Shown here: piece by piece, positions 57,072-61,058 of the stretch | Position numbering within the stretch: the stretch's first letter is position 1 | How the letters are laid out: each line of letters opens with the position of its first letter | NCBI GenBank assembly: GCA_963826115.1 | Contig: CAWGVS010000005.1 | Span: 1,472,001 to 1,536,000, forward strand | Length of the DNA: 64,000 nucleotides | Origin: an uncultured Candidatus Rokubacteria bacterium | GTDB taxonomy: Bacteria > Methylomirabilota > Methylomirabilia > Rokubacteriales > DASRDR01 | Reading direction: 5' to 3' | Notes under the pieces: model-generated | Told to the model about the DNA's origin: nothing | Seen by the model: the letters and a program-made list of their open reading frames with translations, nothing else | Database searches by the model: none | Translations under genes and position numbers: made by a program

Positions 57072-58106
57072 ATGGGCGAGCAGGACCTGCCCGGCCGCCC
57101 CCCGTCCCCCGCGAGCCCCGGATGGCCACCGGCCGGCGCGCCGGACCCCGGACCGCCTCGCCCGCCCGCGTTCCAGCGCCCCAGCTTCCACGGACGCGGC
57201 GGCACCCTCTTCGGCATCCACGTCGTCAACGTCCTGCTCACGATCGTCACGCTCGGCGTCTACTACTTCTGGGCGAAGACGCGGACGCGGAAGTACCTCG
57301 TGGCCCAGACGGAGTTCCTGGGCGACCGCTTCGCATACCACGGCACGCCGAAGGAGCTGCTGCTGGGCATGCTCAAGGCGCTGCTCGTGTTCGGCCTGCC
57401 CATCTTCGCCCTGAGCCTGGTCGAGGACGTCCTCGCCGTGCCCCGGGCGGTGAAGGTCGCCGCGAGCTTCGCGTCCGCCGGCCTGTTCTTCGTGTTCTAC
57501 CCGGTCGCCCTCGTGGGATCCCGGCGCTACCGGCTGAGCCGCATCTCGTGGCGCGCTATCCGCTTCTCCTTCCGGGGCCGCACGGTCGAGCTGATCATGA
57601 TGATCCTTCACGGAAGCATCCTGACCGCGCTGACCCTCGGGCTCTACTACCCGTTCTTCGTCGTCCGCCGCCAGGGGTTCCTCGTATCGCACTCGTACTT
57701 CGGCGCGGATCGGTTCGACTTCACCGGCCGCGGCCGCGATCTCTTCGGACCCTTCCTGCTCGCCGCCGTGCTCACCCTTCCCACGCTGGGCCTCTGCTGG
57801 ATCTGGTACATCGCACGGAAGCGCCGCTACTTCTGGGACCACACGCGCTTCGGCGACGCCCGCTTCAGCTGCACCGTCAGCGGGCGTGCGCTCGCCGGCC
57901 TCTGGATCGTGAACGCGCTGCTCCTGGTCGTGACGCTCGGGCTCGCCTGGCCGTGGGTCCGCGTGCGCAGCATCCAGTTCGCGTTCCGGAGGATGGCCCT
58001 GATCGGGCCGGTCGACCTCGCGCGCATCCAGCAGGACGCGCAGCGCGTCTCCACCATCGGCGAGGGCCTGTCGGGCTTCTTCGACTCAGGCTTCGACTTC
58101 GCCTGA
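57072..58106 (+). CDS. YjgN/DUF898 family membrane protein
   Basis: FHGRGG...NVLLTIVTLGVYYFWAK with repeated TLGL..W/PF segments. Confidence 0.9.
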   Translation: MGEQDLPGRPPSPASPGWPPAGAPDPGPPRPPAFQRPSFHGRGGTLFGIHVVNVLLTIVTLGVYYFWAKTRTRKYLVAQTEFLGDRFAYHGTPKELLLGMLKALLVFGLPIFALSLVEDVLAVPRAVKVAASFASAGLFFVFYPVALVGSRRYRLSRISWRAIRFSFRGRTVELIMMILHGSILTALTLGLYYPFFVVRRQGFLVSHSYFGADRFDFTGRGRDLFGPFLLAAVLTLPTLGLCWIWYIARKRRYFWDHTRFGDARFSCTVSGRALAGLWIVNALLLVVTLGLAWPWVRVRSIQFAFRRMALIGPVDLARIQQDAQRVSTIGEGLSGFFDSGFDFA

Positions 58107-58127
58107 CGCCGTGGCGTCGCGAGGCCG

Positions 58128-59228
58128 GTGATGCGGACCGACTGGCAGGGGTCGTACCTCGACGGGCGGACCGCGGCCCGCCAGCCCGTCACGATCCGGC
58201 TGATGCGTGAGGGCCTCGAGGTCACCCCGCCGGGCGGGCCGAGTCAGCTCTGGCCATACCGCGAGGTTCGGCAGACGCAGGGCACCTACGCCGGCGAGGA
58301 GGTCCGCCTCGAGCGCGGCGGGCCCCTGCCCGAAACGCTGGTGATCGGGGACAGCGCGTTCCTGGAGAGCCTCCACGATGCCGCGGCGCACGCCGGGATT
58401 CGCTTCCATGACCCGCGGCGCCGCGCCGCTCGGCTCCGCCTCACGATCGTGGCCGCCGCGGCGGTCGTGGTGGTGACCGCGGCCATCTACCTCTGGGGTA
58501 TCCCGCTGCTGGCGGCGTTCGCGGCGCCGCGCGTGCCGGTGGCCTGGGAGGAGAGCGTCGGCCAGTCCGCTGCCGCGTACCTGGCGCCGCCCGGAGAGCG
58601 CTGTAGCGACCCGCAGCTCCTCGCGGCCATGGACGACCTCGTCCGCCGGCTCACCGGGCCCGGCCCGCCGTCACCGTACGCGCTCCGCGTCTACGTCGTG
58701 AACCGCCCCACGATCAACGCGCTCGCGGTCCCGGGCGGCCACGTCGTGGTGTTCCGCGGCCTGCTCCGCCAGACGCGAACCCCGGAGGAGATGGCCGGCG
58801 TCCTGGCCCACGAGCTCCAGCACGTCCTGCGCCGGCACACGACCCGCGCGGTGATCCAGGACCTGTCGACCGGGCTCCTCCTCATGGCCCTCACCGGCGA
58901 CGCCACCGGCCCGCTCGCGTACGGCCTCCAGACCGCCCGGACGCTCGGCAAGCTGCGCTACACGCGCCACGCCGAGGAGGAAGCGGACGCCGAGGGCATG
59001 CGGATGGTGCTCGCGGCGCGCGTGAATCCCGCCGGCATGATCGCGTTCTTCCAGAAGCTCCAGCGGGAGGAGGGCGGCCGCGCAGGCCGCGCGCTCGCCT
59101 ACCTCCAGAGCCACCCGCCCGCCACGGACCGCCTGGCGCAGCTCCGGGGAGTCGCGATGGCCTGGCAGGGAACGCCGGAGCCACTCCTTCCCGCTACTGA
59201 CTGGAAGGCCCTGACCACCCGCTGCTGA
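58128..59228 (+). CDS. M48-family metallopeptidase (YjgN-associated)
   Basis: YLDG N-terminus, TM, NALAVPGG, LAHELQH, EEEAD and SHP motifs. Confidence 0.92.
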   Translation: MMRTDWQGSYLDGRTAARQPVTIRLMREGLEVTPPGGPSQLWPYREVRQTQGTYAGEEVRLERGGPLPETLVIGDSAFLESLHDAAAHAGIRFHDPRRRAARLRLTIVAAAAVVVVTAAIYLWGIPLLAAFAAPRVPVAWEESVGQSAAAYLAPPGERCSDPQLLAAMDDLVRRLTGPGPPSPYALRVYVVNRPTINALAVPGGHVVVFRGLLRQTRTPEEMAGVLAHELQHVLRRHTTRAVIQDLSTGLLLMALTGDATGPLAYGLQTARTLGKLRYTRHAEEEADAEGMRMVLAARVNPAGMIAFFQKLQREEGGRAGRALAYLQSHPPATDRLAQLRGVAMAWQGTPEPLLPATDWKALTTRC

Positions 59229-59402
59229 GCCATCCTGGGTCCCGTCTTGGGATGCCTTGGACCATCGTCCTGACCGATGCACTGCCAGGGTTCCCGTCAC
59301 ATGACGAGCAGACAGAGAACAGAGCCTCACACGAGCGCCACCATCCACCTGTGACTGTGGACTCCAGGTCGCCCGGGGGCGGCCCCCTGTCGCGAAATGC
59401 AC

Positions 59403-59431
59403 TTGACACTGTTGCGCAACATCCCTAGCTT
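59403..59431 (+). promoter_or_regulatory. sigma70-type promoter with palindromic operator
   Basis: TTGACA-N17-TAGCTT; perfect palindrome TGTTGCGCAACA at 59410-59421 in the spacer. Confidence 0.7.
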
Positions 59432-59498
59432 AGGCGGCCATTGGACGGGCACCGTGCCCACGTCCTCAACCTTCTCCGGAACGCAGGAGGTCTGACGG

Positions 59499-59711
59499 AT
59501 GCACGGACCGCGCAGTGTTCGTCGCGCCATCTCGTTCATCCTACTGGTCGCCGGCACGCTGGCCCTGACCGGGTGCAACTCCAACTCGGTCTCAAGCAGC
59601 CAGTCGAAGCCTTCGAGCTCGACGAATGCAGAGGTCACATCCTCGGTCAAGCCGCCGGCCGGCCCGCGCTCACAGGGCATCCTGGACGCGGCCAAAGCCC
59701 AGGTGAGGTAG
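59499..59711 (+). CDS. Small Ser-rich lipoprotein (cassette 1)
   Basis: AGGAGG SD, lipobox LTGC, mature CNSNSVSSSQSKPSSST; paralog of 60221..60445. Confidence 0.75.
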   Translation: MHGPRSVRRAISFILLVAGTLALTGCNSNSVSSSQSKPSSSTNAEVTSSVKPPAGPRSQGILDAAKAQVR

Positions 59712-59715
59712 CGCC

Positions 59716-60159
59716 ATGGCTGACACGAGTGGTTTCCAACGGCGCGTATCGATGTCGCTCTGCGCGATCGCGCTGGGTCTCTTTCTGACTCTGGCGGTGG
59801 ATGGGGAGCTATCCCCGGCCGCGGCGTTCGATCGCTGGGTCGGCGCCGTCGTAGTGCCCGGTGCCGGAACCGCGTTCGATTTCATCGTTCTGGTGGATCC
59901 CGGAAGGAGCGCCAGCTTCGAATGGCGGGACGGCGGAAACGTCGTGGTGTTTAGCGGCCCGCTCGCAGCGAGCGTCTCAGGATCCCGGGTCACGGGCACC
60001 TTGTATCCCTTCGGAGGCGTGGCCACCCAAAATTCGTCATGCTGCAGGCCCTGTAACTTCAGAGGGACGATCTCTGGAAATCGCGTCGATGGAGCATTCG
60101 ACTCGGCAACCTGCACCGACGACGGCTCCGTCGCGACATTCTTCCTGCTCAAGCAGTAG
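59716..60159 (+). CDS. Secreted beta-rich Cys-containing protein (cassette 1)
   Basis: GAGG SD, signal peptide ending AAA, VTGTL...PCNFRGTISG...C; paralog of 60516..60899. Confidence 0.75.
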   Translation: MADTSGFQRRVSMSLCAIALGLFLTLAVDGELSPAAAFDRWVGAVVVPGAGTAFDFIVLVDPGRSASFEWRDGGNVVVFSGPLAASVSGSRVTGTLYPFGGVATQNSSCCRPCNFRGTISGNRVDGAFDSATCTDDGSVATFFLLKQ

Positions 60160-60220
60160 CGCCCGAGCAATGACGAATCATCACGTCCTCAACCTTTCCC
60201 GAAACTCGGGAGGCCTGACC

Positions 60221-60445
60221 ATGCACGGACCGCGCACTCGTGTCCTCGCCACCCTTACCTTCCTACTCACGGCCGGCGTGCTGACCCTGGCAGCGTGCAA
60301 CTCCGGCGGGGTCTCCAGCAGCTCGCAGAAGCCTTCGGGCTCGAGCAACGGGATGTCGGCCGCGCAGATGCCGGCGCCGGCGCGCGCGTCCGGCAAGACC
60401 ACGCTGGCCGACGGCCTGGCCGCGCAGCTCAGCAATCCACGGTAG
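60221..60445 (+). CDS. Small Ser-rich lipoprotein (cassette 2)
   Basis: GGAGG SD, MHGPR start, lipobox LAAC, mature CNSGGVSSSSQKPSGSS. Confidence 0.75.
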   Translation: MHGPRTRVLATLTFLLTAGVLTLAACNSGGVSSSSQKPSGSSNGMSAAQMPAPARASGKTTLADGLAAQLSNPR

Positions 60446-60515
60446 TCGGGACGCAGCCCGGTCTTCCCAACGCTTGCCCGAGGGCTGTCCCGCGAGACAG
60501 CCGTGGAGGCCGACG

Positions 60516-60899
60516 ATGTCAATCTCAGGCAGACGAGCAATCCCGTGGGCGCTCGGACTGGTGCTGGCCGCGATCCTCGTCGGCGGCTTTGCCGGTGAGG
60601 CGGCCGCGGACGTGTACAAGGGCACCATCACCTTCCAGAGCGTGCCCTCCGCCAACATCACCATCACCGTGGTGCCGGGAGTGTCCGCCGGTTATGTCGT
60701 CACGTTTCTCGGCATCACGATCGATTCAGGCGGCGTGGCCGCCACGGTGAACGGGTCAACGGTGACCGGCACGATCTTCAGCAACAACTTCCTTCCCTGC
60801 AACTTCTCGGGGACGGTCAACGGGCCGACCGCCACCTTGAACCTGGATCCGGCCTCGTGCGGCGGGCCAGGCCTGATCGTCGTCACCCGCGTCGCCTGA
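60516..60899 (+). CDS. Secreted beta-rich Cys-containing protein (cassette 2)
   Basis: GGAGG SD, signal peptide ending AAA, VTGTI...PCNFSGTVNG...C. Confidence 0.78.
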   Translation: MSISGRRAIPWALGLVLAAILVGGFAGEAAADVYKGTITFQSVPSANITITVVPGVSAGYVVTFLGITIDSGGVAATVNGSTVTGTIFSNNFLPCNFSGTVNGPTATLNLDPASCGGPGLIVVTRVA

Positions 60900-60939
60900 G
60901 GAAGCGGTCCGTCCACCTCTGGTCTCGGACGCTTCGAGT

Positions 60940-60990
60940 CCTCGCCGGCGGGCCGGTCGGTCCTGGCGACCGGCCCGCCGGTGAGGTATT
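60940..60990 (+). terminator. Putative terminator after the cassette cluster
   Basis: 15-bp perfect stem CCGGCGGGCCGGTCG/CGACCGGCCCGCCGG, extendable, followed by TATT. Confidence 0.55.
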
Positions 60991-61058
60991 CTGGCCGGCG
61001 ATTCGACGTTGGCCACGCGCGCCCCACGCGCCGGGCGGACGCCAGGATCCGAGAGCCC

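Follow-up and report, generated by a model that had tools for sequence, protein, structure and literature searches.

The stretch of DNA analyzed here, called the window throughout, comprises 64,000 nucleotides from an uncultured Candidatus Rokubacteria bacterium (assembly GCA_963826115.1, contig CAWGVS010000005.1, positions 1,472,001 to 1,536,000). It contains a two-gene unit in duplicate, in which a gene for a mini-lipoprotein, termed A, precedes a gene for a small secreted protein with a predicted eight-stranded β-barrel fold, termed B. All four genes are located on the + strand of a window with ~73% guanine plus cytosine (GC), with their open reading frames between 59499 and 60899, and a single transcription unit carrying the two A-B cassettes spans positions 59403-60986. 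To the reading that A and B constitute a two-piece, trans-tethered version of the known linker-plus-barrel lipoproteins of the cell envelope, a probability of about 0.4 is assigned. The features of the transcription unit are as follows.

59403-59431, + strand: promoter-like site, with −35 hexamer TTGACA (59403-59408), 17-nucleotide spacer and −10 hexamer TAGCTT (59426-59431)
59447-59459, + strand: hairpin GGGCA-ccg-TGCCC in the 5' untranslated region; 5 pairs in the RNAalifold consensus of five leaders, 2 of them changed on both sides and still paired
59469-59491, + strand: stem covering the Shine-Dalgarno sequence, ACCTTCT pairing with AGGAGGT; 7 pairs by RNAalifold, 2 compensatory
59499-59711, + strand: A1, mini-lipoprotein of 70 residues with signal peptide, lipobox LTGC, Ser/Asn-rich stalk and C-terminal helix
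59716-60159, + strand: B1, secreted protein of 147 residues; signal peptide ending in AAA, mature part of 110 residues with 4 Cys, predicted eight-stranded β-barrel
60182-60219, + strand: leader repeat of unit 2, 84% identical to 59459-59496; includes the Shine-Dalgarno sequence and lacks the promoter motif and the first hairpin
60221-60445, + strand: A2, mini-lipoprotein of 74 residues, lipobox LAAC, the most divergent A
60516-60899, + strand: B2, secreted predicted barrel protein of 127 residues with 2 Cys, from a separate B clade
60940-60986, + strand: GC-rich, terminator-like hairpin after B2, with 20-nucleotide arms (95% complementary), a 7-nucleotide loop and no T run

The A-B unit forms a direct repeat with a spacing of 722-723 nucleotides. 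Between the copies, the 38-nucleotide leader is 84% and the following 124 nucleotides are 73% identical, and a sliding comparison of the two units gave 60-77% identity for the leader and the 5' half of A, ~50% for the 3' part of A, and 28-48% for B. On the protein level A1 and A2 share 44% identity (E 2e-9), B1 and B2 34% (E 3e-12), both far above chance. The cassettes reside in a GC trough, with 0.60-0.68 in 300-nucleotide windows across 59250-60900 vs 0.70-0.76 on both sides, and the GC content at third codon positions (GC3) is 0.74-0.88 in the four cassette genes vs 0.93-0.96 in five neighboring genes. An earlier note on this DNA had described a two-gene unit occurring twice in a lower-GC island, with nearly identical leaders and first codons and diverging mature regions; in all these respects, including the four reading frames, it proved accurate.

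The same note had postulated one promoter ahead of the array and one terminator behind it. The hexamers TTGACA and TAG..T align in all five first-unit leaders, that is in the window and at the related loci L014, L015, L016 and L018, and the motif, taken from an alignment of the 200 nucleotides upstream of the first A gene at these five loci, is absent before A2; strict consensus scans, on the other hand, flagged neither a promoter nor a terminator in the transcription unit. As to the terminator, the hairpin after B2 is there, the T run is not. Unrelated GC-rich hairpins follow the last B gene in L014, L015 and L016, and the search of Rfam returned only sub-threshold matches to microRNA models, placed on the hairpin after B2. 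The whole is read here as an operon with a single promoter in front, two cassettes, and a terminator-like hairpin at its end. The two leader stems are common to the five loci and comprise 12 predicted pairs, 4 of which show compensatory changes, which with only five sequences amounts to a lead; the Shine-Dalgarno sequence of A1 (GGAGG at 59486-59490, 8 nucleotides before the ATG) lies inside the second stem, and the stems at 59447-59491 may represent a translational control element of the operon. Within unit 1, the stop codon of A1 and the start codon of B1 are 4 nucleotides apart, with GAGG 7 nucleotides upstream of B1. A GGAGG is located 6 nucleotides upstream of the ATG of B2, for which a TTG at 60474 provides an alternative upstream start (141 residues).

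The predicted barrel protein B

The AlphaFold2 model of B, computed from a 29-sequence alignment, consists of eight strands and reached a mean predicted local distance difference test score (pLDDT) of 88.5, with 88-98 in the mature blocks, and a predicted template-modeling score of 0.71. The predicted fold is an eight-stranded meander β-barrel, of which four strands are just 6-8 residues long. The small avidin- or lipocalin-like β-barrel guessed at in the earlier note is in line with this model. A Foldseek search of the PDB, a check which that note had proposed, returned nothing at E ≤0.001; its top rows (E 3.3e-3 to 1.1e-2) form a coherent set, with the C-lobe of TbpB (3.3e-3), TbpB, the N-lobe of LbpB, the C-terminal barrel of NHBA, and PmSLP. 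An independent search with VIA-align was headed by the transmembrane domain of OmpA (Z 12.0, root-mean-square deviation (rmsd) 2.6, 101 residues aligned), followed by designed barrels (Z 11.2-11.5; for the best of these rmsd 2.5, 95 aligned), a domain of quinohemoprotein amine dehydrogenase (Z 10.9), Cap15 (Z 10.4), shwanavidin (9.6) and a TbpB-type lipoprotein (9.4), and a second structural search added GID4 with up to Z 11.0 and rhizavidin with Z 9.7. Altogether 30 chains, representatives of unrelated families, reach Z ≥8 against the model. The structural matches of the predicted B are generic and reflect a common eight-stranded meander barrel; the avidins reach Z 9.6-9.7, and many other eight-stranded barrels score equal or higher. 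Comparison of features in the ESM Atlas pointed to unnamed clusters at 0.89-0.91, which at most 0.91 count as leads or weak evidence, and to the named entries OAA lectin (0.87), avidin (0.83-0.84), DUF6006 (0.82) and Calycin_like (0.79), all below 0.9 and hence leads only. A 15-column hairpin motif (..G.I.GN.V.G..) occurs twice in B, with an hhalign probability of 49%.

With OmpA as the top row, and with OprF, PagL, OmpW, NspA and a designed transmembrane barrel also among the matches, it might be considered that B sits in the outer membrane as an integral barrel like OmpA, OmpX or PagL, with A as its lipoprotein partner. This appears very improbable. The scores of soluble designed barrels, GID4 and avidins are just as good, and mature B, with 96-113 residues and its four short strands, is small for such a role. 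In outer-membrane barrels of the OmpA type, a C-terminal aromatic residue serves as the β-signal. The C-terminus of B reads KQ in 30 of 48 family members, and none of the ends listed is aromatic. In seven of the eight strands, with side-chain directions taken from the alternation within strands and not from coordinates, the hydrophobic, Gly-rich and nearly charge-free face is the better conserved one, in keeping with a soluble barrel that has a packed core; the opposite face varies and bears charges. Because of this conserved charge-free, Gly-rich face, the short strands, the non-aromatic C-terminus and the conserved Cys pairs (4 Cys in 33 of 48 members, 2 in 13), we read the modeled B as a soluble barrel.

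In sequence, B stands apart. Among 128 candidates from a search of 5.8 billion clusters, 38 homologs of B1 (itself included) were found at E ≤0.01, all of them "hypothetical" or unnamed and none with a Pfam domain. A three-sequence profile of mature B, run against 1.84 billion representatives, retrieved 21 proteins at E ≤0.001, including 13 at ≤1e-10; two of the 21 (1279 and 307 residues, repetitive) look unrelated by eye. Nothing above threshold was obtained for B1 or B2 in Pfam, NCBIfam, PADLOC or PHROGs, at E up to 1 neither an avidin nor a lipocalin model of Pfam is listed for B1, for B2 or for any of 29 family members, a sequence search of the PDB with B gave chance immunoglobulin and monobody rows only (E ≥0.2), and viral_contigs holds no relative of B. 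Avidins, lipocalins, GID4 and designed barrels share with B the predicted eight-stranded meander fold without any sequence match, and, in contrast to calycin-type barrels, B has a disulfide pattern and conserved motifs of its own, namely LDRWVG, CCRPCNF and the C-terminal KQ. A signal peptidase I site of the AxA type is present in 46 of 48 family sequences, from which secretion appears probable, and the pairs of Cys residues suggest one or two disulfides in the exported protein. The ratio of non-synonymous to synonymous divergence (dN/dS, Nei-Gojobori) amounts to ~0.2-0.3 among B orthologs and ~0.5 for B1/B2; judged by these ratios, B is a conserved coding gene.

In a maximum-likelihood tree of 48 B-family proteins, from which four fragments (P0030, P0047, P0049, P0052) and P0056-P0060 were excluded, B2 groups with the metagenomic proteins P0051, P0053, P0054 and P0055 (support 99/95), separate from 41 B1-type rows. 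The sole longer architecture in the family is that of P0050 (195 residues; on 25 contigs, the longest of 154 kb), a B-like barrel with a C-terminal extension of ~90 residues, at least 4 Cys and no Pfam family above cut-off. Two candidate properties of B were considered and set aside. Export by the twin-arginine translocation pathway was suggested by an RR pair which, by eye, is frequent before the hydrophobic stretch and not invariant; a metal site at the conserved CC-x-P-C was dismissed in view of the 13 of 48 members, B2 among them, with only two Cys.

The mini-lipoprotein A

A signal peptide ending in [LVI][ASTVI][GAS]C was taken as the lipobox criterion for A. All 11 A sequences carry the lipobox (LTGC, LAAC, LAGC, LTAC or VAAC) at the same position of the alignment, and lipid modification of its Cys residue is probable on these grounds. 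In the alignment, the mature part opens with the conserved C-NSNSVSG.QPK.S.STNAE, varies in its middle, and closes with G.I.AA....R, which is conserved as well. Mature A comprises 41-49 residues, 69-80% of which are S, T, N, G, P, Q or A, and carries a net charge of +3 in ten of the sequences and of +4 in one. The AlphaFold2 model (11 sequences, mean pLDDT 61) shows a signal helix (4-26), an unstructured segment (27-57) and a helix at 58-69; the pLDDT of residues 29-35 and 37-49 falls below 50.

A search of 5.8 billion clusters yielded nine homologs of A1, itself included, with 59-70 residues; A2 returned itself only, without any other close relative in that search. Nothing in Pfam, NCBIfam, PADLOC or PHROGs exceeded threshold for A, which, together with the same outcome for B, bears out the earlier note in its failure to recognize a family for either gene. 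By size and as a lipoprotein, A resembles entericidin A/B, the colicin lysis proteins and the o-spanins, of which two paralogous copies likewise lie close by. A match to Lysis_col (11.7 bits, cut-off 27) covers the signal and lipobox region only, and those to spanins in PHROGs (Rz-like phrog_11621 with E 0.0028, residues 2-37; another with E 0.2) cover the signal region only. Unlike A, these systems have no paired barrel gene, and A is found without phage context.

Between the units, DNA is best conserved in the leader together with the 5' half of A; synonymous sites have diverged less in A than in B; and a stem in the 5' untranslated region covers the Shine-Dalgarno sequence. In view of this, one might ask whether A functions as a protein at all, or rather as a leader, translated or untranslated, which regulates B and is conserved at the RNA level. 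The chances of this are slight. The length of A is conserved (66-70 residues in 9 of 11 aligned sequences, with A2 at 74 and the copy of congener G011 at 69; one further database match has 59), gaps in the alignment are whole codons so that the frame is kept, the lipobox is fixed in position, and both the N- and the C-terminal motifs of the mature part are conserved. Moreover, dN/dS (Nei-Gojobori) is 0.4-0.6 among A orthologs, and the start codon of A1 is preceded by GGAGG at a distance of 8 nucleotides. A is, by these comparisons, a conserved coding gene under weaker protein-level constraint than B.

Pairing, proposed tethering and the alternatives

Among 251 genomes of the phylum, B was detected in two, which are also the only two of 15 in the genus, namely the window's own genome and that of congener G011; strong full-length matches to an 11-sequence A profile occur in the same two genomes only. 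The window's genome has just two copies of each gene. A weak B match in G024 (E 0.0041, 18.2 bits) is restricted to the signal part of a 514-residue frame. The A profile also matched weakly in three other genomes (E 7.6e-5 to 7.2e-4), each time within a long frame (311-775 residues); the one inspected is an unrelated 281-residue lipoprotein with a HEIGH motif, a match to be explained by generic similarity of signal peptide and linker. Wherever upstream DNA is visible, A is located directly upstream of B: in the two units of the window, in G011 (L011/L014), and in L015, L016 and L018, that is in 6 of 6 units; L017, which begins 31 nucleotides before its B frame, is outside this count. The expectation of the earlier note that the pairing should recur was thus borne out, also beyond the window's genome. 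From these comparisons of sequence, the A-B family pair is real but narrow and, as sampled, confined to one genus-level group. No such lipoprotein-barrel pair turned up in full-text searches of the literature, and none of the libraries or papers searched describes it.

How might the two proteins work together? From an operon with its own sigma-70-like promoter, structured 5' leader and terminator-like hairpin, two paralogous two-gene modules would be expressed. A would be exported and lipid-modified at the lipobox Cys to give a mature peptide of ~41-49 residues, consisting of the lipid anchor, a disordered Ser/Asn/Thr-rich stalk of ~30 residues and a C-terminal helix of ~12 residues. B would be exported by the Sec pathway, cut after the AxA site, oxidized to one or two disulfides, and folded into a soluble eight-stranded meander β-barrel of ~100-110 residues. 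The C-terminal part of A would then dock non-covalently on its B, such that a flexible leash ties the barrel to a membrane of the cell envelope. This arrangement would be the two-piece equivalent of the one-piece lipoproteins with lipobox, flexible linker and eight-stranded barrel, such as NHBA, fHbp and the lobes of TbpB. In some calycin-type and meander barrels, peptides or small ligands sit in the mouth of the barrel.

Among known designs, that of the TbpB-like surface lipoproteins (TbpB, LbpB, fHbp, HpuA, NHBA, PmSLP) comes closest, combining a lipobox, a flexible region, a handle domain and an eight-stranded barrel, with Slam as partner (PMC5449769). A and B jointly supply the lipobox, a flexible low-complexity linker and, by prediction, the soluble eight-stranded barrel. 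TbpB-like barrels provide the best Foldseek rows and reach Z 8.0-9.4 in VIA-align, and B1 matches the Pfam family TbpB_B_D (PF01298) with 13.6 bits, below the cut-off of 26; of 29 B-family members, only 2 match it at E up to 1. Several differences are evident. The parts are distributed over two polypeptides, B having its own signal peptidase I signal and no lipobox; B also lacks a handle domain, its mature 96-113 residues being the barrel alone. No Slam (DUF560, PF04575) was found in the window's 99%-complete genome, where the best match scores 16.8 bits vs a cut-off of 22. The host, finally, is a soil bacterium of another phylum, unlike the host-associated proteobacteria with TbpB-like lipoproteins. 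If A does leash B, the lipid anchoring of a soluble envelope domain would be supplied in trans by a dedicated mini-lipoprotein, a mode of anchoring absent from the descriptions of linker-plus-barrel lipoproteins found in the literature searches. In any case, an uncultured soil lineage of high GC content contributes a compact, confidently modeled and predicted disulfide-bonded eight-stranded barrel family without database annotation; the finding does not reach far, as the family stays within one genus-level group as far as sampled.

For A-B binding one can first cite the 4-nucleotide gap between A1 and B1 and the joint duplication of the pair. A complex prediction was carried out for the cognate A1-B1 pair only, with mature B1 (38-147) and mature A1 (26-70), both with alignments. 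The score was 0.39 (runs 0.39, 0.38 and 0.43) vs 0.01 for the best of three controls, with a contact agreement of at least 88% and a partner pLDDT of at least 48 in the runs, and the verdict was "weak support". Of 157 solved complexes, 116 reach the mark for this score, as do 2 of 215 mismatched pairs; only 18 of the 157 solved complexes, and both passing mismatches, do so with 0.60 or less. Read in this way, the predicted complex brings a modest increase in the odds of binding, because strict adjacency and co-occurrence gave a fair prior. The lipid-anchored tether, which the earlier note had listed among several ideas, gains weak support from this one prediction; nothing in the analysis favors a surface-fiber nucleator with its subunit, or a modified lipopeptide with its immunity protein.

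A number of points weigh against the tether. The complex score lies in the weak range, came without a reported interface, and concerns a partner whose own fold is uncertain. Pairwise identities of A and B over the six units correlate with r 0.53, which drops to r 0.02 (10 pairs) without unit 2, so that there is no signal of A-B co-evolution; the "diversifying partner system" of the earlier note is not supported at this point. Nor does the term diversifying fit in the sense of positive selection, given dN/dS of 0.2-0.3 for B and 0.4-0.6 for A, with ~0.9-1.0 reached only between A2 and the other A genes (Nei-Gojobori). This last value equally accommodates relaxed constraint, under which A2 may stand. 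Among the 1.84 billion representatives, searched without length limit, no protein with A and B in one chain turned up. The adjacency of A and B may stem from common ancestry within one genus instead of function, and the conservation of A may be partly at the nucleotide or RNA level or due to recombination. An inward direction of the hydrophobic side chains, too, is read from alternation within the strands and not from coordinates.

The main rival holds that A and B are co-expressed and do not bind each other. B would in this case be a free periplasmic or secreted ligand binder, or a blocker of a foreign enzyme, of the inhibitor or immunity type met in patchy, duplicated and decaying arrays, and A an independent membrane-active or spacer lipoprotein. 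The patchy distribution in genus and phylum, GC and GC3 below those of the neighbors, the tandem duplication in the window together with decayed second copies in L014 and L017, and a location in a variable slot between HlyD-like and aminotransferase genes are all in accord with such proteins, as are the missing co-divergence of A and B and a barrel fold common to many ligand binders (avidins, GID4). Strict adjacency in every unit, co-occurrence in the same genomes, and a complex score that is weak but positive with clean controls speak against independence; furthermore, no toxin, secretion-system or phage gene was seen beside the cassette, and no PADLOC model matched. On balance, two independent proteins are possible though somewhat unlikely.

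Genomic slot and cassette evolution

In two congeners, a HlyD-like gene is followed, after 230 and 537 nucleotides, by genes for a WecE-like aminotransferase and a membrane glycosyltransferase of the GT-C type. G011 and L015 carry one A-B unit within this HlyD-to-aminotransferase gap. In the window the gap extends to 4.2 kb and also houses genes for a DUF898 membrane protein and an M48 peptidase (with DUF7092), which at 57072-59228 have no tblastn match (E up to 1e-5) in nine related loci; the slot therefore gathers several accessory genes. Among signs of a mobile island, no tRNA gene, flanking direct repeat or phage relative was found at the cassette. None of the public sequencing runs is listed as RNA, and the contigs from four DNA runs, which are short pieces of low depth, revealed no joints.

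The genes 3' of the cassette raise the possibility that the Ser/Asn/Thr-rich stalk of A, and possibly B too, is a substrate of the aminotransferase and the glycosyltransferase, in a glycosylated envelope module that would be compatible with either a tethered or an independent B. Downstream of the window's cassette lie a WecE-like sugar aminotransferase (NF008687, 550 bits vs a cut-off of 375) and a PIG-V/PMT_2-like membrane protein. The aminotransferase follows the cassette in 4 of 4 loci with visible downstream DNA (the window, L014, L015, L016), the membrane protein also in L014 and L015, L016 ending inside the aminotransferase; the composition of mature A, rich in small and polar residues and with a Ser-rich conserved start, would suit a glycan acceptor. 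On the other hand, the aminotransferase is kept in 5 of 5 congeners without A-B, and the glycosyltransferase in 4 of 4 with downstream DNA, so that neither gene depends on the cassette. A strong hairpin separates B2 from the two genes, all loci come from one genus-level group, such that the synteny may be inherited, and by eye the A alignment shows no conserved sequon. Glycosylation by these neighbors thus seems improbable.

Returning to the tethered barrel, the history of the units deserves consideration. B1 and B2 belong to two old clades, and the units in the window are therefore not a recent duplicate. At silent sites, their A genes have diverged by 0.55 and their B genes by 1.64, and overall, too, this divergence is lower in A (0.5-1.1) than in B (1.2-2.6). 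That A and the leader are far closer at silent sites than B suggests that the 5' module underwent recombination or conversion, or else is constrained at the nucleotide level, and the units look like mosaics of a shared 5' module and divergent barrels. Along these lines, a variant of the tether can be formulated, in which a split envelope or surface lipoprotein employs A as a leash that captures a separately secreted barrel via its C-terminal helix, with the cassettes exchangeable, and the leader plus the 5' part of A acting as a recombination handle joined to old divergent B lineages. Such a handle would explain the contrast of 0.55 vs 1.64, as well as the leaders kept in decayed second units; taken as a whole, this elaborated variant is rather doubtful.

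In G011 the intact pair is followed (L014 5397-5582) by a decayed second unit, made up of a stretch similar to the leader, a signal peptide like that of A, and frameshifted fragments of a B C-terminus that include CRPC (E 3.5e-5). The module is an accessory, patchy cassette that duplicates and decays in one variable slot. At L017 653-697, ~140 nucleotides after the intact B gene, a possible remnant of a B C-terminus (..SCG..GTFTLVKQ) was noted, with E 0.05 only. The metagenome contig L018 differs from the other loci in its arrangement: at 3-119, upstream of A, it carries a fragment resembling the aminotransferase over residues 108-149 (71% identity). In the window, the aminotransferase leader (60990-61058) has ~50 extra bases compared with seven related loci, in all of which a GGTGGAGTATCCTCCGGCGAGAGCGC-ATG-like sequence immediately precedes the start codon of this gene.

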